Positions 15,595 through 51,364 of a DNA stretch of 64,000 nt are shown in pieces; positions within the stretch are counted from its first letter, which is position 1, and the number at the start of each line of letters is the position of its first letter. A model generated the notes under the pieces. The model had not been told where the DNA came from. It did not search any database and saw only the letters and a program-made list of their open reading frames with translations. A program made the position numbers and the translations under genes. The DNA is from an uncultured delta proteobacterium (GTDB taxonomy: Bacteria > Desulfobacterota > RBG-13-43-22): the NCBI GenBank assembly GCA_963743305.1, contig CAVUPH010000042.1, positions 82,018-146,017 of the forward strand, given 5' to 3'.

Positions 15595-15707
15595 AGTTGA
15601 AGCACTTTTTCAAAGTTCTTTGCCCGTTCGGACAGGATGTTTGTTTTGAGTCGCCGCCGGATGTTCAACCTTCGACGTTCATTTCATATGGAAATAGAAG
15701 GTTCGGT

Positions 15708-15904
15708 GGTCATTCCAGCTCCGGGCAAATCCCCCTAAATCCCCCTTTGCCCCCGCGTGCCGCGGGGCAGGCGCCGGGGGACTTGGACTCCCCCCTTGGA
15801 AAAAGGGGGGCAGGGGGGGATTTTCATGTTTCGCGGGTGCCCGCCTCGAGCATGGGGGTTTAATACGAAAATAGAACCCGGCGCCACTCGGGCAATCATC
15901 AATA
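15708..15904. repeat. Palindromic repeat family B copy 1 (AATCCCCCTAAATCCCCCTTT...GGGGGATTT)
   Basis: Near-identical to 22842..23038, including the tail TTTAATACGAAAATAGAACCCGGCGCCA. Confidence 0.8.
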
Positions 15905-16068
15905 ATTAATAATTAACAATTGATTATTAATTATTAATATCATGAGGTTAAGTTGTTTCCGCGCCCCTATTATTTTCATGCTTCACGGGTACCCCACGAG
16001 GCGAAGCGCCTCTTTTATTAAGGGGTTGCCCCGCCTGCCGGATTAGGATAAATTGATATTCCTACCCT

Positions 16069-17926: not shown

Positions 17927-19186
17927 TTAGAAGCGCCAGGTCAAACCAAATTCATAGCTCATTTCGGTCAGGTTGGATTCCAGGCGAGCAGGCTGGCCGT
18001 TAAGGGCCGTGCCATCTTCGCTGATCGATTCCCCGAAACCGTAGGTGTAGCCCACATGGGCGGAAAAACGGTTGGAAAATTCGTACCCAATTCCGAGAGT
18101 GACATGGCTTTTGGTGATAGCCGGGAAGCCGATAATCCGGAAGGTTTCATAGTAATAGGCGGGCATGAATTTGCCCTGGACCTGGACCGGGTTGGTTCCC
18201 GCGAAACCGTTGTGGCTCTTGACCGGATTGTTGGCATAGTTGTAACCGGCCCGCAGCACCAGTTTATCCGTGGCCTTGTACTGGACTCCAAAGCCCAGAA
18301 CCCACTGGTCTTCCCAGTCGAAATCCTTGTAACCGGCGGCGTTGGCCCAATTGATCCACTTGCCGTCCATTTCGACCAACAGCTTGCCCGGCAGGATATC
18401 GAAGGCCACACCCAGACCCGCCTGTTGCGGTGATTCCAGATCGAGATCATCCTTGGTGCCGTTTCCGTCGAAATCCGCGACTCGCTCGTGTTTCACCTTC
18501 TGGGGGGTGACATAGGTGGCGCCCAGGGAGAGTCGATCCATCGGCTTGTAAATCATGCCGAGTTGGGCCCCAAAAGCATAGCCGGCGGAGGTGCCGCTGC
18601 CCAAGTCCAGCATGGCGTAATCCATGTGAGCGGCCAGGCCGAAGGAAAATTGGCTGTTCGGCTCAAAGGCGATGGAGGGGGCGAACTTCATGATCGACAA
18701 CTGGGTGTAGCCGCCGGCGACCAGGGGAAACCCGCCAAAATTGGCATACTGGGGCTGATCCAGGCTGGTATTGCGATAATCCACCCCCAGCCCGGAGACG
18801 CCGTAGGCCGCTAAGCCGAAACGCCAGAGGGGCAGGGTCTTGGTAATCGGGGTGGACAGGCCGATGGCCGGGATGGCATAGACATTTTCCTTGCTGTCCG
18901 CTTTGATCGTATTGCCCCCCAGCGTCACCTTGGCGTCCACCTTGGGGGTGAAGAGGGTCCCGGCAAAATTGAATTCCGACCCCGGGCAGTAGGGCCCGAA
19001 GCACATGGCGGCCGGGTTGGAAAACACGGCGCTGATGGCGTCCTGGGGAGCGGCGATGCCCACGCCGCCCATGGCCCGGGAGGCCGGTCCGATGCCGATT
19101 AAATTGTCCCCGTTGGTGGCCAAGGCCAGGGAAGCCCAGAGGACCACCAGTCCCACCAGAACACCCATTTTCAAGATCTTTTTCAT
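17927..19186 (-). CDS. FadL/OmpP1/TodX-family outer-membrane channel
   Basis: Signal peptide, ATNG...SRAMGG hatch, NPA motif, C-terminal aromatic TWRF. Confidence 0.88.
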   Translation of the reverse strand: MKKILKMGVLVGLVVLWASLALATNGDNLIGIGPASRAMGGVGIAAPQDAISAVFSNPAAMCFGPYCPGSEFNFAGTLFTPKVDAKVTLGGNTIKADSKENVYAIPAIGLSTPITKTLPLWRFGLAAYGVSGLGVDYRNTSLDQPQYANFGGFPLVAGGYTQLSIMKFAPSIAFEPNSQFSFGLAAHMDYAMLDLGSGTSAGYAFGAQLGMIYKPMDRLSLGATYVTPQKVKHERVADFDGNGTKDDLDLESPQQAGLGVAFDILPGKLLVEMDGKWINWANAAGYKDFDWEDQWVLGFGVQYKATDKLVLRAGYNYANNPVKSHNGFAGTNPVQVQGKFMPAYYYETFRIIGFPAITKSHVTLGIGYEFSNRFSAHVGYTYGFGESISEDGTALNGQPARLESNLTEMSYEFGLTWRF

Positions 19187-19250
19187 GCCTTCATCTCCTT
19201 TCTTCCTTTCGATTTTGAATGATTAAAAAAGGTATATGTAGACTCCTCCC

Positions 19251-20505
19251 CTAGTGAATCAAGGCGTCGGCCACCAGGGAGGAGAGAAATTGAACTTCCA
19301 CACCCATCTGATAATGGTCGTTTAAATCGCTGAGCTGGGTGTGGCAGTTTTCGCAGGCCGTGGCCAGAATTTTGGCCCCCGTTTTTTTGACCTGGTCCAC
19401 CTTGACCGTCACCGATTTCATGCGAAAGTCGAGCGTCTCCTCCCCCAGGGCCACCAGACCGCCGCCGCCGCCGCAGCACCAGTTGTAGCGTACATCCGCG
19501 GTCATATCGATAAACCGGCTGGTCAACCGGTTAAGGATATACCGCGGTTCATCGATGATTCCGGCGTTGCGGGCCATCTGGCAAGGGTCGTGATAGGTGA
19601 TCGGGACCTGGAATTTGTCTTTTTCTACCCGGATCCGGCCCTCCCGGAGGTAACGGGCGTGGACTTCGGTAATGGAACTGACTTTGAAAGGCTGTTTCCC
19701 GGAAAGCTGCTTCATCACCCGGAAGGCGGTGCCGCATTCGCAGATGCAGACCTCCTTCACTTTCAGCCTTTTGGCTTCATTCAGGATTCGATCCAAGATC
19801 AGCTTCGTCTTGGTGGGGTCACCGACAAAGGCCCCAAAGTTGACCGCTTCAAAAAAACTCAAGGTCCAGTTTTCCTTGGCGGCGTTGAAGATGGCGGCCG
19901 CCGGGATAATCGAATGGGCTCCGGCCAGGGCCACGTAGAGCAGATCGGCCCCCTCCACATCCACAGGAATGGGCGTTTGCCCGGCTTCCCCCCGCCATTT
20001 TTCAACGACCTGGGCCTCCAGGTTTTTGATTCCGGTCAAGAAATCCCTCTTTGAAGAACTCCAGGGACTTTCCTTTTTCAATGGAGGTGTCGGCCAGCAT
20101 GGAAAGGATCTCCGGCTCGGTACCGGATCCGACCAGGAGCAGTTTGGCGATCGACATCAGCATCTGGGTATCGATGCCATGGGGGCAGTAGACCATGCAG
20201 CGCCGGCAGCCGGTGCAGGAGTAGGCGGCTTCCGATAACTCCTGGAGGGCCATTTCGGTCAATTCCTTGCTTTCCCCCCAGGCGGGAAAGGCTTTCCCCT
20301 GGCCCTTAAAATATTTCTTATAAATCCGCCGGACGATCTCGTGGCGGTAGGCTGAAATATAGCGGACCTGCCCCATGGACTGGTAGGCATGGCAGGCCTC
20401 GGTGCAGGTCCCGCACCGCGAGCAGGTCTCCAGGTAAAAGCGCATGGCTTCATTGAGTTTGGATTGAAAGAGTTTCAGTAAATCGTCGCGTGTTTTTTCA
20501 TCCAT
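19251..20505 (-). CDS. DsrK/HdrD-like FeS protein (2x[4Fe-4S] plus CCG domain); one +1 frameshift at ~20041
   Basis: CSRCGTCTEAC, CTGCRRCMVYCP, ICECG, YHDPC, CCGGGGG, ACENC. Confidence 0.85.
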
Positions 20506-20507
20506 GG

Positions 20508-21224
20508 CTATCCCCTCCTCAATTTATTCATGGGAATAGTTAAAAAAGAATGCATGATCTTGCTATAAGGAAAGAGCATAATGAACAGGTTAGCAAAGAA
20601 GATATGCAGGACCAACATGAAGGAGTGTCCGGTCTGGTAGGCGGCATCCGGGACTTGGGGGCGCAGGAACAACAGGCTGGTGAAATAGGTCTTATAATCG
20701 CCGGGCCCCATTTCGCCGTAACCATACCAGCGGCGGGCCCAGTCCATCTGGGCGCCGAAGAGCACGGTCAGAAACAGCAGAATCAGCAGATAATAGTCTT
20801 CCGGAATGGAAAGGTCCCTGACCGGCGAGGCGAAACGCCGAAAGAGAAAGAAGAGCAGGGCGAGCGATAAAACCAGTCCGACGAAGCCTTTCCCCAGAAA
20901 AATCTCGTGGGGGATGAACTGGAAGACATTGAAGCCCTCGAACATTTCCAGATGGCCGATGATCAACAGCAGCAGGGCGAGGTGGAAGGACATCAGAAAG
21001 ACCCAGTGCAACGGTTTATGCCGCCGGACCGAGGGCATGAAGAAAGAATCCGCCAGGGCCCAAAACCAGGGGGGATTTTTTTGCGGATAGATCTGCAGGG
21101 TGCTGGCCGGATTCTTCGGACTGCCGATGATCTTGGCCAACTTGGTTATTGTCCCCACGATAAAGACCAGGAACGCCAGGTAGACCATGGGTACCAGGAT
21201 CAGGTAATAAATCGTTTTCATCAT
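20508..21224 (-). CDS. DsrM/NarI-like membrane cytochrome b
   Basis: About 5 TM helices with four His in NarI-type spacing (FH..GH; LH..SKIMH). Confidence 0.85.
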   Translation of the reverse strand: MMKTIYYLILVPMVYLAFLVFIVGTITKLAKIIGSPKNPASTLQIYPQKNPPWFWALADSFFMPSVRRHKPLHWVFLMSFHLALLLLIIGHLEMFEGFNVFQFIPHEIFLGKGFVGLVLSLALLFFLFRRFASPVRDLSIPEDYYLLILLFLTVLFGAQMDWARRWYGYGEMGPGDYKTYFTSLLFLRPQVPDAAYQTGHSFMLVLHIFFANLFIMLFPYSKIMHSFLTIPMNKLRRG

Positions 21225-21301
21225 TTCCTCCTATTGGATAAAAAGAAGGATCCTCTTTCCCTCAAAAGGATTTTTCGCGTTGCCCCTCTGCCGGAGAAGG
21301 G

Positions 21302-21328
21302 CCCCGCCCCCGGATTCCGGGGACGGGG
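21302..21328 (-). terminator. GC hairpin between tusA and the cytochrome b gene
   Basis: CCCCGCCCCCGGA-T-TCCGGGGACGGGG. Confidence 0.4.
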
Positions 21329-21348
21329 GTTGGGGAAGTTGAGGAGGT

Positions 21349-21591
21349 TTACTTAAGGCGTTTGATGTAAATTTTTATGACCCCGTCGCCTTGGTCGGTT
21401 TTTAAAATTTCGTTGCCGCTGGTTCGGGCCCAGGCCGGAAAATCCGCGAGCGCCCCGGGGTCCGTGGTCAGGGCTTCGATCACCTGGCCTACCTGAATCT
21501 CTTTGATGCCCTTGCTGACCTTAACCACCGGCATGGGGCAGGGAAGTCCTTTCAAGTCCATCACTTTGTCAACGTTGAATGTTTCAGCCAT
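21349..21591 (-). CDS. tusA: TusA-family sulfurtransferase
   Basis: DLKGLPCPMP motif, TTDPG. Confidence 0.93.
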   Translation of the reverse strand: MAETFNVDKVMDLKGLPCPMPVVKVSKGIKEIQVGQVIEALTTDPGALADFPAWARTSGNEILKTDQGDGVIKIYIKRLK

Positions 21592-21612
21592 TTTTTTTCT
21601 CCTTCTTAAATG

Positions 21613-22164
21613 TTAAAGAAATAAGGTAACTTTGCTGTTGATGGCATGTTCCAGAAAGGTGGCCACCCCGACGTATTCCACCCCGGGGTAATCGATCATT
21701 TCTTCATGCTTGAAACCCATGAGGTCCATGGACATTTCGCAGATGAATATCTTGACTTCCAGTTCGGCGGCCATTTTGATAAACTCTTCCAGAGAGGCCA
21801 CGTTTTTCTTTTTCATGAGCGATTTCATCATGGCGGTACCCATCCCGCCCATGTTCATCTTGGATAGCTTTACTTTCCCGGCTCCCTTAGGGAGCATGGA
21901 GCCGAACATCGTACCCATCAAGTCCTTGCCGCCCACATTCTTGTTCTTATCCCGCAGGATCGGCGTGCCCCAAAAGGTAAAAAACATAATTACTTCCAGA
22001 CCCATAGCCACGGCCCCGGTAGCGATAATAAAAGCGGCCAGGGCTTTGTCCAGATCCCCGCTGAAAACGATCATGGAGAGTTTTTCCTCCGGTTTGGAGC
22101 CGGCCAGGCCGTCCACTTGGGCTTTTAATTCGGCCAGTTGTTTTTCAATGGCTTCCATTTCCAT
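21613..22164 (-). CDS. DsrE2-type (DsrE/DsrF/DrsH-like) sulfur carrier
   Basis: IVFSGDLDKA, MFFTFWG, ICEMSMDLMG. Confidence 0.9.
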   Translation of the reverse strand: MEMEAIEKQLAELKAQVDGLAGSKPEEKLSMIVFSGDLDKALAAFIIATGAVAMGLEVIMFFTFWGTPILRDKNKNVGGKDLMGTMFGSMLPKGAGKVKLSKMNMGGMGTAMMKSLMKKKNVASLEEFIKMAAELEVKIFICEMSMDLMGFKHEEMIDYPGVEYVGVATFLEHAINSKVTLFL

Positions 22165-22200
22165 AACATCCCCCTTTCGGTGAATTGGGTTAATTTACCT

Positions 22201-22225
22201 TGTTATCGTTAATAGGAGTAACAAA
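22201..22225. promoter_or_regulatory. Inverted repeat TTGTTA-N13-TAACAA, candidate MarR operator
   Basis: Lies between marR and dsrE2; related TTGTTAACA overlaps the marR start region (22721..22729). Confidence 0.4.
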
Positions 22226-22238
22226 ACAATCCAACCAG

Positions 22239-22718
22239 CTAAACCAATTGTTGTTTGATCACCTCCATGGAAGACCTCAGGGTTTCCAAAGAGGCTAAGA
22301 CGCTTTTGCGGTCGACTTCTTTCAGTTCCTGCAACAACTGGTGGTGGAGGTCTTTTAAAAACAGGTCGAGGGCCTCGACCTGTTTCTGCCCCTCCGGGGT
22401 CAGGCCGATTAATATCACGCGGGCATCTTCCGGATCGTCGATCCGCTGAGCCAATCGTTTATGCACTAATCCGTCAATAATCTTGGTAATCCGGCTTTTG
22501 GCCACTTCCAGCTTTTGGGCCAGGCCCTTGACCGTCAGGTAGCGCGCTTCCTTGAAGAGTAACAGGCATTTCATCTCCGCCTGGGTCAGACCAAACTTTT
22601 GGGCCTGGTAGAGGGTCTTTTCCTGGCAGCACTGGGTAATTTCGGCAATCAGGTCTTGAAGTTTTTGGGCCTGGTAGCGGTTGACCTGTTCTTTAGAAGT
22701 GGGGTAAAAGTCGTTCAT
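22239..22718 (-). CDS. MarR-family regulator with vicinal Cys-Cys
   Basis: wHTH LAQKLEVAKSRIT...DPEDAR...LTPEG; ITQCCQE and MKCLL cysteines. Confidence 0.9.
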   Translation of the reverse strand: MNDFYPTSKEQVNRYQAQKLQDLIAEITQCCQEKTLYQAQKFGLTQAEMKCLLLFKEARYLTVKGLAQKLEVAKSRITKIIDGLVHKRLAQRIDDPEDARVILIGLTPEGQKQVEALDLFLKDLHHQLLQELKEVDRKSVLASLETLRSSMEVIKQQLV

Positions 22719-22727
22719 GGTGTTAAC

Positions 22728-22756
22728 AATCTAAAACCAACCCGAGGCCTTGTCAA
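22728..22756 (-). promoter_or_regulatory. Sigma70 promoter of marR, near-leaderless
   Basis: TTGACA-17 bp-TAGATT; ATG about 9 nt downstream; no RBS. Confidence 0.6.
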
Positions 22757-22841
22757 GGAAAAAATGGGGGTCAAACGATTTTTTTGAGATCCGGTCCGTC
22801 GGCTGTCTGCTTACCTAAGTAGTATGAAGATAAAGGTTGGT

Positions 22842-23038
22842 GATTATTCCAGCCACCTTGAAATCCCCCTAAATCCCCCTTTGCCCCCGCGTGCCGCGGG
22901 GCAGGCGCCGGGGGACTTGGACTCCCCCCTTAGAAAAAGGGGGGTTAGAGGGGGATTTTCAGGGTTCGCGGGTGTCCCGAGGAGCAGGGGGGTTTAATAC
23001 GAAAATAGAACCCGGCGCCATTCGGGCATTCATCAATA
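22842..23038. repeat. Palindromic repeat family B copy 2
   Basis: Matches 15708..15904. Confidence 0.8.
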
Positions 23039-23183
23039 TTTAATGAGGATATAATCTTTCCCCGCTGTCATTGCGAGGGAAACGAAGCAATCCCCGGGCC
23101 GAATTCGGGATTAGAATTAGATTGATTTTAAGGGACCGGGAGCTTATTAGTTACCAAAAAGGATCAGTAGCGAACCGAATTCC

Positions 23184-25103: not shown

Positions 25104-26880
25104 ATGGCTCCCAATGATTTCGGTTATTTTGAAGGGGAGCACTTGGGCAAGCCGTACGATTTTGGCCTGCTGAAGAAGGTCCTTCCTTATTTATGGCCCT
25201 GGCGATTCCGGTGGCTGCTGGTGATGGTGCTGACTCTGGCCGGGACCGCCCTGGACCTGGTCCCTCCCTACCTGACTAAACTGGCCATCGATCAATATAT
25301 CCTCAAAGGGCGGGTCCAGGGCCTGGGGTTTTTGGCTTTATTGCTGCTGGTGGCCCTGGTTTTTGGCTATGCGCTCCAATATACCCAGGTAGTGATCATG
25401 GAACAATTGGGCCAGCGGGTGATGCATGCCCTGCGCCTGGACCTGGTGGCCCATCTCCTGTCACTGCCGCTGCCCTTCTACCAGCAGCATCCGGTAGGGC
25501 GGCTGGTTACCCGGGCCACCAACGATATCGAGAACCTGAATGAGATGGTCAAGTCGCTGCTCTCGACCCTGGTTAAGGATATCCTGCTGTTCCTGGGGAT
25601 TATGGGGGTCCTTTTCTACCTAAATTTTAAGCTGGCCCTGATCACCTTTGCCGTACTGCCGGTCATTTTTGTGGCCGCCCGGCTTTTCAGCCGGAAGGCC
25701 CGGGACGCCTTCCGGGATTTGCGTCGCTGGGTAGCTCACCTGAATTCCTTTATCCAGGAAACCCTTTCCGGCATGACCCTGATCCAGCTCCTGAAAACGG
25801 AAGCGCAACGGACCGAGGACTTTCGTGGGGTGAATCACCAGGCCTATCTGGCCGGGATGAAGCAGATTCAGGTGTTCGCTTTGTTCATGCCGCTCATGGA
25901 ATTGATCTCGGCCGGCGCCGTGGCCCTGTTGATCTGGTACGGCGGCGGTCAGGTCATTCGCCAGACCCTGACGCTGGGCGCCCTGGTGGCCTTCCTGTCG
26001 TATATCCAGATGTTTTTTCGTCCCCTGCGGGAGTTGACCGAAAAATACAGCGTCCTGCAATCGGCCATGGCCTCCCTGGAGCGGATCTTCGCCCTGATGG
26101 AGGAAAAAGCCGAGGAGGGACCGGAGGAAACCTTATTTCGGCGTCCGGCCCGGGTCCAAGGGGAGATAGCCTTCGACCGGGTCAGCTTTGCTTATCAGGA
26201 CGAAGAGTGGGTGCTCCAGGACATTTCTTTCACCATCCGGCCAGGAGAAGCTGTAGCCATCGTCGGGATGACCGGAGGAGGGAAGACCACCCTGATTCAA
26301 CTTGCTGGAGGGTTTTTATACCCCCCAGCAGGGAGAAATCCGGATCGATGGGATTCCCCTTCGATCGTTTTCCAAGAATTTTTTGAGGGCCCTGGTCGGG
26401 TTGGTCCCCCAGGAGGTTTTTCTCTTCGCGGGCGACCTGAAAGAAAATATTCTTATTAGCGGATCAGGCAACCCTTTCTTCCGGGGCGACCGGAATAAAA
26501 TATGGGAGGAAATCCAGCCCCTTTTCCAGGATTTCCAGGGACGAAAGGTCGACACCCTGTCCTCCGGAGAACGGCAGTTGGTGGCCATGGCCCGGGTTTT
26601 AGCCCGGGACCCGGCGATCCTGGTGCTGGATGAGGCCACCGCCCACCTGGACGCCCAGACGGAAGAAAAAGTCCAGGCCGTTCTGGGCAGGCTGCTGACC
26701 GGGCGGACCTCGCTGGTCATCGCCCATCGGCTCTTTACCCTGCGCCAGGCCTCCCGGATTATGGTCCTGCATCAGGGCCGCCTGGTCGAGGAAGGGACCC
26801 ACGCGCAGCTCATGGACCGGAAAGGGTACTATTACCGGTTATACCGGTTGCAGTATAATGAGGTTCAAAACGGGGAATGA
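25104..26880 (+). CDS. ABC exporter partner half-transporter (MdlB/YheH-like); +1 frameshift at ~26302
   Basis: TMD, GMTGGGKT, then LSSGERQ and LVLDEAT in the next frame. Confidence 0.88.
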
Positions 26881-50587: not shown

Positions 50588-51364
50588 ATGAAATGGACCG
50601 CTGAAGCCGAGGGGGCTGTTTCCAAAGTCCCCTTTTTTATTCGCAAAAAGGTTAAAAAACGGGTTGAGGAAGAGGCCGAACGGCAGGGCAGCCCGGTGGT
50701 AACCCTGGATCTGGTCAAGGCCTGCCAGCAGCGTTTTCTCCAGAACATGGACCGGGAGGTCAAGGGGTATCAAGTCGAGGCCTGCTTCGGCCCCACGGGC
50801 TGCCCGAACGCAGTGGTCGTCGATCCGGAACTGGTTCAGAAACTGGAAAAAAAGTTGGAGCAGCGGAACCTGAGAGGCTTCCTGAGAGAGAAAGTCAAAG
50901 GCCCTTTGAAGATGCACCACGAATTCCGCGTTTCCCTGTCCACCTGTCCCAACGCCTGCTCCCGGCCCCAGATCGTGGACTTCGGGATGATCGGGGCCTT
51001 GCGTCCGGTCATCGGCGATGAGCCCTGTACCCTGTGCGGAGCCTGCCGGGAGGCTTGTCCGGAAGGGGCCCTGACCCTGGAGGAGGAAACGGCCCGCCCG
51101 GTAATTGATTTTGATCGCTGCCTGGCCTGCGGCCTGTGTATCAAGGCCTGTCCGGTCGGGACCCTGGTGGAAGGCGCCAAGGGTTTCCGCATCCTGCTGG
51201 GAGGAAAACTGGGACGGCATCCTCAGTTGGGCCGGGAATTGCCCGATATCCGTTCGGAGGAGGACCTGCTGGCCATTCTGGACCGGACCTTGGACCACTA
51301 TCAAAAATATAATGAAAAGGGGGAGCGACTGGGAGAGGTCCTGAAGCAACACCCTCTGGGATAG
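50588..51364 (+). CDS. Small NIR/SIR-like FeS protein with N-terminal PCP_red-like domain
   Basis: WTAEAE...VPFFIR; CFGPTGC...CPNAC; two CxxCxxCxxxCP. Confidence 0.8.
   Translation: MKWTAEAEGAVSKVPFFIRKKVKKRVEEEAERQGSPVVTLDLVKACQQRFLQNMDREVKGYQVEACFGPTGCPNAVVVDPELVQKLEKKLEQRNLRGFLREKVKGPLKMHHEFRVSLSTCPNACSRPQIVDFGMIGALRPVIGDEPCTLCGACREACPEGALTLEEETARPVIDFDRCLACGLCIKACPVGTLVEGAKGFRILLGGKLGRHPQLGRELPDIRSEEDLLAILDRTLDHYQKYNEKGERLGEVLKQHPLG

Follow-up and report, generated by a model that had tools for sequence, protein, structure and literature searches.

Two sulfur carriers, a DsrMK-like membrane enzyme and a FadL-family channel: a conserved gene group of Desulfobacterota as a candidate system for zero-valent sulfur

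We describe a group of six genes on the minus strand of a 64,000-nucleotide (nt) stretch of DNA, called the window here at its full length, from an uncultured delta proteobacterium of the phylum Desulfobacterota (GenBank assembly GCA_963743305.1, contig CAVUPH010000042.1). Seven open reading frames (ORFs) at 17927-22718 make up the six genes, which encode, from the first to the last, a MarR-family repressor, a DrsE_2-family (DsrE2-like) sulfur carrier, the sulfur carrier TusA, a NarI-type membrane cytochrome b of the DsrM/TmcC-like kind, a DsrK-like cytoplasmic iron-sulfur (FeS) protein with a CCG motif, and an outer-membrane channel of the TodX/FadL family. The first five of them are kept together as a cassette in at least seven families of the phylum, in agreement with the synteny that the first-pass annotation of the sequence had proposed to search for, and the cassette very probably represents a quinone-linked thiol or persulfide oxidoreductase that depends on the sulfur carriers. 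We further propose that the whole putative operon is an autoregulated, DsrC-independent system for the handling of zero-valent (sulfane) sulfur, with the FadL protein as the entry through the outer membrane, a reading to which we give slightly less than half of our confidence; the substrate, the direction of the reaction, the sensing chemistry and the co-transcription of the six genes are what we infer. The six co-oriented genes of the first-pass annotation were borne out in coordinates and strand by the ORF list, and in identity by Pfam matches above the cut-off.

The redox enzyme and its sulfur carriers

Gene families were assigned with Pfam profiles, and equivalog identity was checked with NCBIfam models. 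The DsrK-like protein, encoded at 19251-20505 (-), has in all 11 orthologues compared two invariant CX2CX2CX3C motifs (C28/31/34/38 and C97/100/103/107), the sequence C255-E-C257-G-T and a CCG motif (C308...C343C344...C384xxC387). DsrK, HmcF and TmcB are marked by two canonical clusters, by only one CCG motif, which serves a noncubane cluster, and by the conserved Cys of a (G/T)ECGH sequence, and HdrD and HdrB by two CCG motifs (PMC10861901; this and the other papers cited here are drawn on through extracts of their text). The cassette protein has the motif features of DsrK, with the His of ECGH replaced by Thr in 11 of 11 orthologues; compared with HdrD, it lacks a second complete CCG motif, the first one being reduced to a CECGT remnant. 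When scored with the DsrK model NF045796 (cut-off 400), the cassette protein reached 235-273 bits and the true DsrK of the same genomes 721-765 bits in five of five genomes, the cassette protein always coming second; the two halves of the window's own protein scored 106.6 and 148.9 bits. The models for TmcB (NF045724, cut-off 735) and HmcF (NF045711, cut-off 750) gave it 214-233 and 205-216 bits, respectively, in five genomes, in which another paralogue scored 437-540 bits. The cassette protein has about 417 amino acids (aa) compared with 542-557 aa in the open frames of true DsrK, true dsrK lies elsewhere in cassette-bearing genomes, and none of dsrJOP, dsrC and dsrAB was found at the locus in the 14 loci of the window's family and the 13 of other families.

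A tree of 23 rows (LG+G4, SH-aLRT support only, rows rebuilt from the match coordinates of hidden Markov models, HdrD and curated TmcB and HmcF not included) separated four clans: the cassette protein (11 rows, support 100), DsrK (5 rows, 100), HmcF-like proteins (4 rows, 98) and a type with in-frame TGA (3 rows, 100). The cassette clan stands beside DsrK across a short branch with a support of 96, to which a long-branch warning applies. Judged from these sequences, the DsrK-like protein is a paralogue with a clan of its own and not DsrK itself. The phylogenetic comparison with DsrK, TmcB and HmcF that had been proposed for it hence ends in a separate clan, below all curated cut-offs, and its place beside DsrK is not the grouping with fatty-acid enzymes or enzymes linked to electron-transfer flavoprotein (ETF) that the first-pass annotation had named as the contrary outcome. 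The solved chain nearest to it by sequence is 9ojn_A, an 'iron-sulfur-binding reductase' (E 3.9e-15), followed by HdrB chains.

The gene of the cytochrome b (20508-21224 (-), 238 aa; PF02665, 46.8 bits against a cut-off of 22.9) ends 2 nt ahead of the DsrK-like gene. Four histidines, H81, H91, H207 and H225, which would serve two haems, are invariant in 30 of 30 sequences. The protein scored 32.7 bits with the DsrM model (NF038037, cut-off 300) and 46.1 bits with that for TmcC (cut-off 240), and on these scores it is a member of the NarI fold but not DsrM proper.

All five cassette genes, with their order kept, were present in 12 of 14 loci of the window's own family, the remaining two being cut by contig ends (the loci are those of kin, which are not independent, and no locus count given here is a statistical test). 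In an evenly drawn sample of 401 genomes of the phylum, 58 had a match to the DsrK-like protein at E <= 1e-70 and 23, from seven families, an orthologue at 50% identity or more; the matches beyond these 23 are of 33-39% identity and represent paralogues. Genes for DrsE_2, TusA, the cytochrome b and the DsrK-like protein occur together in 11 of the 13 ortholog loci from the six other families, where tusA once follows the cytochrome b gene and two loci have the enzyme genes alone; a MarR gene was detected in 8 of the 11 loci with carriers. The four genes upstream of the DsrK-like gene were all found in 61 of the best 80 species loci (all of at least 77% identity; 432 stretches encoded a relative), and 17 of the other 19 have less than 2.6 kb of upstream sequence; this 80-locus set overlaps the loci from our G-numbered genomes, both being drawn from a common species collection. 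In the protein collection, at least 120 clusters match the DsrK-like protein at 82% identity or more; they are named '(Fe-S)-binding protein', 'Fe-S oxidoreductase' or, in one source, '[DsrC]-trisulfide reductase subunit K'. At least one cultured organism, Desulfacinum infernum DSM 9756 (record L131), carries the cassette, and a literature search on this species and elemental sulfur (S0) found no S0 physiology.

Both carriers have a single, invariant cysteine. In TusA (21349-21591 (-), 80 aa; PF01206, 77.4 bits against 28.6) it is Cys18 of a CPxP motif, in 31 of 31 sequences, with P19 and P21 also invariant; the protein scored 41.5 bits with the equivalog for E. coli-type TusA (cut-off 78) and 39.8 bits, also below the cut-off, with that for YedF. 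In the DrsE_2 protein (21613-22164 (-), 183 aa; PF13686, 185.5 bits) it is Cys142, again in 31 of 31 sequences. The DsrE2 equivalog NF047629 (cut-off 210) gave this protein 100.9 bits, and Allochromatium DsrE2 is described as having two transmembrane helices (PMC12998232). The nearest solved chain of the window's protein, 3pnx_A, is a crystallised 160-aa 'putative sulfurtransferase DsrE' (E 4e-33), which speaks for a soluble protein by analogy.

The docking of TusA on the CCG protein that had been suggested for a structure prediction was recovered in a model of the complex. The DsrK-like protein (11-row alignment) and TusA (16-row alignment) were modelled with our own alignments in three runs, together with three controls, and the pair scored 0.64 compared with 0.01 for the best control; of 80 solved complexes, 58 came up to the score mark, as did 2 of 110 mismatched pairs, a rough calibration since the alignments were our own. 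Contacts agreed among the three runs to at least 95%, and the pLDDT of the partner was 84 or higher. On the TusA side, the modelled interface contains residues 17-20 (PCPM, the Cys18 loop) and 44-58; on the enzyme side it includes residues 133-162, 193-199 and 219-223, as well as 352, 354, 385 and 389, which flank the CCG cysteines. We know of no solved complex of TusA with DsrK or HdrD, and recall of a solved complex by the model is unlikely, since there is no close DsrK-type chain among the solved structures. TusA is therefore, as modelled, the best candidate for the direct substrate, and we consider it fairly probable that it is a direct partner of the enzyme. With one cysteine each, TusA and DrsE_2 may together mimic the two-cysteine arm of DsrC.

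The outer-membrane channel and the control region

The channel gene fadL (17927-19186 (-), 419 aa; PF03349, 80.7 bits, family cut-off 29.7) begins 64 nt past the stop codon of the DsrK-like gene and has a Shine-Dalgarno (SD) sequence of its own, with neither a terminator-like site nor an operator in the spacer. The protein has a signal peptide or N-terminal hydrophobic leader, NPA at residue 57 and a C-terminal Phe, and scored 22.5 bits with the equivalog of E. coli FadL (cut-off 585). Co-oriented with the cassette, a FadL gene follows the DsrK-like gene in 9 of the 14 loci of the own family; in other families, 5 of 9 evaluable loci have a FadL-family gene next to the cassette. Of the 80-locus set, 67 loci could be evaluated, the other 13 being short downstream, and 35 of these 67 have a co-oriented FadL gene that follows the DsrK-like gene at a gap of 29-524 nt. 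FadL-family genes are widespread in the phylum (204 of 401 genomes), and the one at the cassette locus is the sole match of the genome in five of five genomes checked, including that of the window. In two of these five, the protein is 26-28% identical to the window's FadL and its gene lies downstream of the cassette in one and divergent from marR in the other. The downstream neighbours of loci without FadL vary and include convergent MsrAB and FmdE-like genes, convergent genes for TPR proteins, a gene for an ArsP permease, and genes for a thioredoxin lipoprotein and a DsbD-type membrane protein, the last pair following the cassette in a third lineage. In the two loci L153 and L155, the DsrK-like gene is followed by a co-oriented gene for a rhodanese-metallo-beta-lactamase fusion (persulfide-dioxygenase-like) and then one for ATP sulfurylase.

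The partner with which the channel is most consistently found is the DrsE_2 carrier. The subfamily of the window's FadL (E <= 1e-25) was detected in 26 of 401 genomes, of which 18 were looked at and 17 could be evaluated, one gene lying at a contig start. Of these 17, 11 have it at the cassette (one split over two contigs) and 4 have it immediately next to a DrsE_2 gene without the enzyme genes, which makes 15; in the remaining 2 no carrier is nearby. The four cassette-free units are a MarR-DrsE_2-FadL group, two FadL-DrsE_2 pairs and a group of FadL (broken), a CsoR/CstR-family repressor and DrsE_2. The first of these (L200; G272:C1:69000-82000) encodes relatives of the window's MarR (49% identity), DrsE_2 (71%) and FadL (51%), and no TusA or membrane enzyme was found in its 13 kb. 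Among five cassette genomes without an adjacent FadL gene, one has FadL elsewhere, with a second DrsE_2 gene before it and a periplasmic thioredoxin-like gene (PYCYRC) after it. Locus L198 (G078:C11:838000-857000), a second one of sulfur-related appearance, has genes for DrsE_2 (199 aa), FadL and a periplasmic CxxC thioredoxin-like protein; within a few kilobases are genes encoding a small DsrE-like protein, a LUD-domain protein and another 4Fe-4S/CCG protein. A thioredoxin-like gene homologous to the PYCYRC one comes after the divergent FadL gene of another genome. Periplasmic CxxC thioredoxin-like genes follow FadL in two lineages. In genome G010, FadL was seen on a different contig, adjoining radical-SAM and thiamine pyrophosphate-enzyme genes. 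Across at least six families, the FadL subfamily is tied most tightly to the DrsE_2 carrier. Failure of FadL to be co-conserved had been named beforehand as an outcome that would speak against the sulfur reading: the link to the cassette and to DrsE_2 is non-random, but no more than about every second locus has FadL. We have considerable confidence that the channel works with DrsE_2; that its substrate is zero-valent sulfur is a tentative assignment, about which we have rather more doubt than belief.

Contigs from one library of RNA sequencing reads, 88-95% alike, cover fadL, drsE_2 and tusA, together with the cytochrome b gene and the 5' portion of the DsrK-like gene, which is not proof of transcription, and their depth gives no ranking of the genes; marR and the 3' portion of the DsrK-like gene are without cover, which says nothing either way. 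For another FadL-family protein, CT2230 of Chlorobaculum tepidum, movement of hydrophobic sulfur chains has been speculated (bioRxiv 10.1101/172254), and our literature search found no test of this proposal and no transport data for either channel. The mention of FadL in the extract of PMC10092268 is a figure-legend entry only and was set aside.

The gene marR (22239-22718 (-), 159 aa; PF01047, 36.1 bits, cut-off 24.6) is preceded by a sigma-70-type promoter at 22728-22756 (-), TTGACA-17-TAGATT, with 10 of 12 consensus matches. The promoter claimed in the first-pass annotation is upheld by conservation, since CTTGAC is invariant, and the -10 element kept, throughout an alignment of 17 marR upstream regions that come from several families. 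Site scans of the region gave no excess over shuffled sequences, with 3 promoter-like sites compared with 3.5 and 5 terminator-like sites compared with 7.9, and the promoter rests on its conservation and not on the scan. The -10 element ends about 9 nt ahead of the marR ATG and marR has no SD sequence, as a result of which the transcript looks leaderless; the five other genes have SD sequences. From marR to fadL, the intergenic gaps are 74, 21, 124, 2 and 64 nt, and a weak hairpin in the 124-nt gap that follows tusA was given no weight.

Alignments of the marR upstream regions and of the marR-drsE_2 spacers revealed a pseudo-palindrome, GTTAA-N5-T(T/G)AAC. One copy, O1 (GTTAACACCATGAAC, 22713-22727 (-)), overlaps the marR start codon and is a candidate site of autoregulation; the other, O2 (GTTACTCCTATTAAC, 22208-22222 (-)), lies in the marR-drsE_2 spacer. 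These are the sole two matches in the 64 kb, in which 0.14 are expected and two were reached in 2 of 100 shuffles, and both are conserved in relatives at a distance of about 501-508 nt. In place of the one candidate operator noted earlier there are two conserved candidates, to which MarR would bind. The repressor has a vicinal Cys30-Cys31 pair in 28 of 28 sequences and Cys51 in 25 of 28, and it reached the cut-off of none of the curated MarR equivalogs of NCBIfam. Thiol-based sensors of persulfides or oxidants are known in CstR, in SqrR/BigR and, among MarR-type proteins, in OhrR and MexR. The window's repressor resembles them as a cysteine-conserving repressor heading an operon for sulfur carriers, whereas its vicinal Cys30-Cys31 pair in a MarR scaffold sets it apart.

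Proposed function and its alternatives

The mechanism that we propose would have five steps: (i) MarR, with its vicinal Cys-Cys pair, would bind the two GTTAA-N5-TTAAC operators and be released when its cysteines react with sulfane sulfur; (ii) hydrophobic zero-valent sulfur (S8 or organic polysulfanes) would pass the outer membrane via the FadL channel; (iii) the sulfane sulfur would end as persulfide on DrsE_2 and TusA; (iv) TusA would offer Cys18 to the CCG site of the DsrK-like subunit; (v) a two-subunit membrane enzyme of the DsrMK/HdrED type, whose cytoplasmic subunit would hold two [4Fe-4S] clusters and one CCG (noncubane cluster) site, would trade electrons with menaquinone through its dihaem cytochrome b. 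As to the direction of the enzyme, we lean slightly towards the reductive one. In its widest form, the proposal would make the FadL/TodX subfamily an outer-membrane entry for S0 that feeds a DrsE_2/TusA relay, with reduction at a DsrC-independent, menaquinone-linked DsrMK paralogue, TusA and DrsE_2 in the role of DsrC, the MarR Cys-Cys pair as a new kind of sensor, and the whole as a second, inducible module for sulfur respiration or disproportionation; that all of this should hold is on balance unlikely.

The unit would function like DsrMK with DsrC or like HdrED, and we see in it no new kind of chemistry. With DsrMK and DsrMKJOP, which act with DsrC as menaquinol:DsrC-trisulfide oxidoreductase (PMC10861901), it shares the dihaem NarI-type cytochrome b, two [4Fe-4S] motifs, a single five-cysteine CCG motif and the ECG cysteine, and true DsrK is the nearest clan to the cassette protein in the tree; it differs in the scores below the cut-off, in the length of the protein, in the encoding of TusA and DrsE_2 in place of dsrJOP, dsrC and dsrAB, and in the presumed control by MarR. 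HdrED of Methanosarcina is likewise a two-subunit membrane thiol/disulfide reductase of a cytochrome b and a CCG protein, linked to a quinone analogue (PMC10861901), but HdrD has two CCG motifs where there is one and a remnant here, and CoM-S-S-CoB would be replaced by protein-bound sulfur; a Methanosarcina control genome gave a match to the DsrK model below the threshold only. TusA and a DsrE-family carrier are found in Desulfobacterota in the YTD cluster as well (yeeE/yedE-tusA-dsrEFH, type II), for which a part in handling sulfane sulfur or thiosulfate has been proposed, both in sulfate reducers and in disproportionators (PMC12998232, PMC13490349, PMC13047784, PMC13293266). In contrast to that cluster, no YeeE/YedE, DsrF-like or DsrH-like protein is encoded here or in the relatives' loci, the carrier is of the DrsE_2 type, and a membrane redox enzyme and a channel are added. 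The sHdr system with its TusA/DsrE3 cascade (PMC13293266, PMC4175335) also has TusA and DsrE carriers that feed a CCG-type FeS enzyme, which is, however, a soluble complex of the HdrA/B/C type acting with lipoate-binding proteins, none of which occur at the cassette loci, while the enzyme here would be membrane-bound and quinone-linked. In the dsr operon of Desulfurella amilsii, two dsrE-like genes adjoin a DsrMK-only module, and the authors propose that cysteines of the DsrE-like proteins replace the missing cysteine of DsrC (PMC6378623); there, dsrAB, dsrC and dsrL are present and the machinery is one of sulfite reduction, whereas the unit described here has TusA and a separate DsrK-like paralogue. 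The window's channel resembles the FadL, TodX, TbuX and CymD channels in its PF03349 match, signal peptide, NPA and terminal Phe, with TodX as the nearest solved chain, and differs in its genomic tie to sulfur carriers instead of fatty-acid or aromatic catabolism. No published description of the unit was found in the literature, although it might be listed in neighbourhood tables that supplement PMC10504309, PMC12998232 and PMC13293266.

Several observations weigh against the proposal that the unit takes up and reduces zero-valent sulfur. Under standard conditions, the reduction of S0 to H2S (about -270 mV) is uphill for menaquinol (about -74 mV), and a redox loop of the NarI type would add to the cost, which favours a carrier-bound substrate of higher potential or the oxidative direction. 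The channel is absent from 32 of the 67 evaluable loci in the 80-locus set, and in four of the five cassette genomes without an adjacent FadL gene no FadL-family match was found in the genome at all (completeness 85, 96, 100 and 91%), so that the cassette must be able to work without FadL. By sequence, the nearest solved relatives of the channel are TodX (E 1.9e-14), CymD and TbuX, which conduct aromatic hydrocarbons. No operator lies upstream of fadL, even in relatives' loci with gaps of about 500 nt, and among the contigs of the read runs none bridges the junction of the DsrK-like gene and fadL. An inner-membrane sulfur transporter of the YeeE/YedE or TauE type was not found among the genes of the locus by Pfam or in the ORFs. 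The catalytic gene is broken in this assembly and in two relatives, the complex model is a prediction from our own alignments, and all five steps are a proposal from the genes and that one model.

One alternative is that the reaction runs in the opposite direction, the DsrMK-like enzyme oxidising carrier thiols or persulfides to a bridged tri- or polysulfide and passing the electrons to menaquinone; in sulfate reducers, such a step would belong to the oxidation of sulfide or S0, or to disproportionation. Electron flow from the level of sulfane sulfur or sulfide to menaquinone is energetically favoured. Besides, DsrMK-type modules have been read as oxidative in sulfur oxidisers and cable bacteria (PMC13293266, PMC10861901), carriers of the TusA and DsrE types are best known from oxidative pathways, and the genes after the cassette in L153 and L155, for a rhodanese-metallo-beta-lactamase and ATP sulfurylase, would fit. 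On the other hand, the conserved core has no gene for further oxidation of sulfur, no dsrA was found in 6 of the 23 cassette-bearing genomes, and an inducible unit under MarR with an uptake-type channel suits an external compound equally well; we regard the oxidative alternative as improbable. Much the same weight is due to a role in defence or homeostasis, in which the cassette would strip persulfides or disulfides from cytoplasmic thiols under stress and FadL would admit some other thiol-reactive inducer, such as organic disulfides or aromatic and quinoid compounds. Control by a thiol-bearing MarR would agree with such a role, as would the lack of FadL in many loci and whole genomes, the kinship of the channel to TodX, CymD and TbuX, the MsrAB (five loci), thioredoxin and DsbD genes among the neighbours, and the general occurrence of DrsE_2 and TusA pairs in sulfide-stress operons. 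A quinone-linked dihaem enzyme is, however, a heavy cost for repair, the MsrAB genes are convergent and confined to one genus, and the FadL subfamily stays with DrsE_2 even where TusA and the membrane enzyme are missing, which ties it to the sulfur carrier.

Other substrates appear much less plausible. Handling of selenium (selenide, selenopersulfide or hydrophobic elemental selenium) in place of sulfur is suggested by the near-equal scores of TusA with the YedF and TusA models, both below the cut-off, and by several DsrK/HdrD-like paralogues with in-frame TGA in these genomes; since the cassette itself has neither a gene of the selenocysteine pathway nor an in-frame TGA, no selenium-specific family reached its cut-off, and the recurring neighbours (rhodanese, ATP sulfurylase, thioredoxins) are linked to sulfur, we consider this very improbable. 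Uptake of hydrocarbons or fatty acids, with MarR sensing the FadL/TodX substrate and the CCG protein and cytochrome b acting as an ETF- or substrate-linked quinone reductase, is scarcely credible: it would account for the family of the channel and its TodX-like nearest solved chains, for the aromatic compounds that MarR regulators often sense, and for an AMP-binding (acyl-CoA ligase-like) gene near FadL in one relative, but it conflicts with the absence of etf, acyl-CoA dehydrogenase and aromatic-degradation genes in and beside the conserved unit, with the place of the FeS protein beside DsrK, with TusA and DrsE_2 as invariant members of which TusA is modelled at the catalytic site, and with the pairing of FadL with DrsE_2 alone in several genomes.

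A different kind of doubt concerns the state of the locus in this genome. The FeS/CCG gene of the first-pass annotation proved right in identity, but in this assembly it is frameshifted into two ORFs, 20002-20505 with the two 4Fe-4S motifs and 19251-20081 with the CCG domain, which overlap by 80 nt in different frames. The cause is an extra base at 20044 (-), where a DNA alignment has GGATTTCTTGACC in the window and TTT-TTG or its equivalent in four of four relatives, whose gene is a single open frame of about 417-423 aa. If the lesion is real, the locus would be a decaying remnant of a disused system, and this possibility is strengthened by two family members with independent lesions in the same gene, a TAG at the invariant Tyr285 in L023 (genome G010) and a frameshift near residue 270 in L026 (G014). 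We lean towards an assembly error, because an ABC exporter gene at a distance of 6 kb has a second frameshift (ORFs 25104-26459 and 26302-26880, the tail of the genus mate's protein matching a different frame from the body) and because fadL and the cytochrome b gene are also split in some relatives' assemblies, a pattern that looks like indel error. The flanking proteins are 96-99% identical to those of an intact genus mate, and the extra base stands where relatives vary between TTT and TTC and between TTG and CTG, so that mixed strains can mislead the consensus. A read search found a contig of a relative (about 94% alike, run X10) without the base at 20044, and found no contig, and no read, of the window's own strain across the site, the best run holding 0.22 of the sampled words. 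Decay is, on this evidence, an unlikely explanation, if less so than the change of direction or the role in defence. We also considered that a broken DsrK-like gene might track the loss of dsrA, as it does in three of three dsrA-negative family members (G000, the window's genome, with G010 and G014), but dropped the idea, the dsr region of G000 being probably unassembled. G010 and G014 are both rated 100% complete with no dsrA found, and three other genomes without dsrA (G288, G338 and G406) have no detected break in the DsrK-like gene, the copy of G288 being cut by a contig end.

The proposal of an entry and relay system for zero-valent sulfur bears on the uptake and activation of water-insoluble S0, an open question for sulfur reducers, oxidisers and disproportionators alike, and the literature still describes as unknown both how S0 passes the outer membrane and how its use begins (PMC13490349, PMC8780430). 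The locus offers a concrete chain of parts that can be tested, from the channel through the two carriers to a quinone-linked enzyme, with a sensor whose operators are defined. If the proposal is true, many organisms classed as sulfate reducers would gain an additional, inducible use of zero-valent sulfur. The locus also indicates that enzymes of the DsrMK type are not tied to DsrC. Hits to 'dsrK' and 'dsrM' in metagenomes need care in any case, the label of a DsrC-trisulfide reductase subunit already having been placed on the cassette protein.

The host and the surroundings of the locus

The assembly comprises 4.9 Mb in 43 contigs and is 90% complete. It has aprA (840 bits) and three genes of the DsrC/TusE family, and a profile search of it found neither dsrA nor true dsrK. 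The earlier statement that dsrAB, dsrC and dsrJOP are missing from the window holds at the locus, and for dsrA and true dsrK the absence extends to the 90%-complete assembly. Of the sampled family members, 11 of 13 have dsrA, and so do both genus mates; in the genus mate G002 it lies a few kilobases from true dsrK on one contig, and the dsr region is probably missing from the assembly as unassembled sequence. With aprA and DsrC-family genes present, and dsrA in the genus mates, the host is most likely a sulfate reducer. Among the cassette-bearing genomes, dsrA was found in 17 of 23, compared with 205 of 401 in the whole sample; the cassette is common in dsrAB-bearing genomes but not confined to them.

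A 258-aa ORF at 50588-51364 of the window matches the dsrA model weakly (35 bits, cut-off 392.85) and is probably a small sulfite/nitrite-reductase-like 4Fe-4S domain protein and not DsrA. Elsewhere in the assembly, two DsrK/HmcF-like paralogues (G000:C23:9936-11108 and G000:C7:218795-219817) each have one in-frame TGA, at the same position class in most relatives, and such paralogues are likely to be selenocysteine-containing CCG proteins.

Upstream of marR, one genus (loci L019, L022, L023, L024 and L026) has divergent genes for a LarA-like protein (Lar_N), a QueT-like transporter and an ABC ATPase. A direct repeat of about 220 nt (85-94% identity; 15693-15910 and 22827-23044) brackets a 7.1-kb segment with glgP and the putative operon; as a boundary of the cassette it was rejected, since it belongs to a dispersed family of intergenic repeats with 52 matches in the genome. 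The marR-ABC spacer of the genus mate is about 270 nt shorter, and the repeat copy at 22827-23044 may be a recent insertion.

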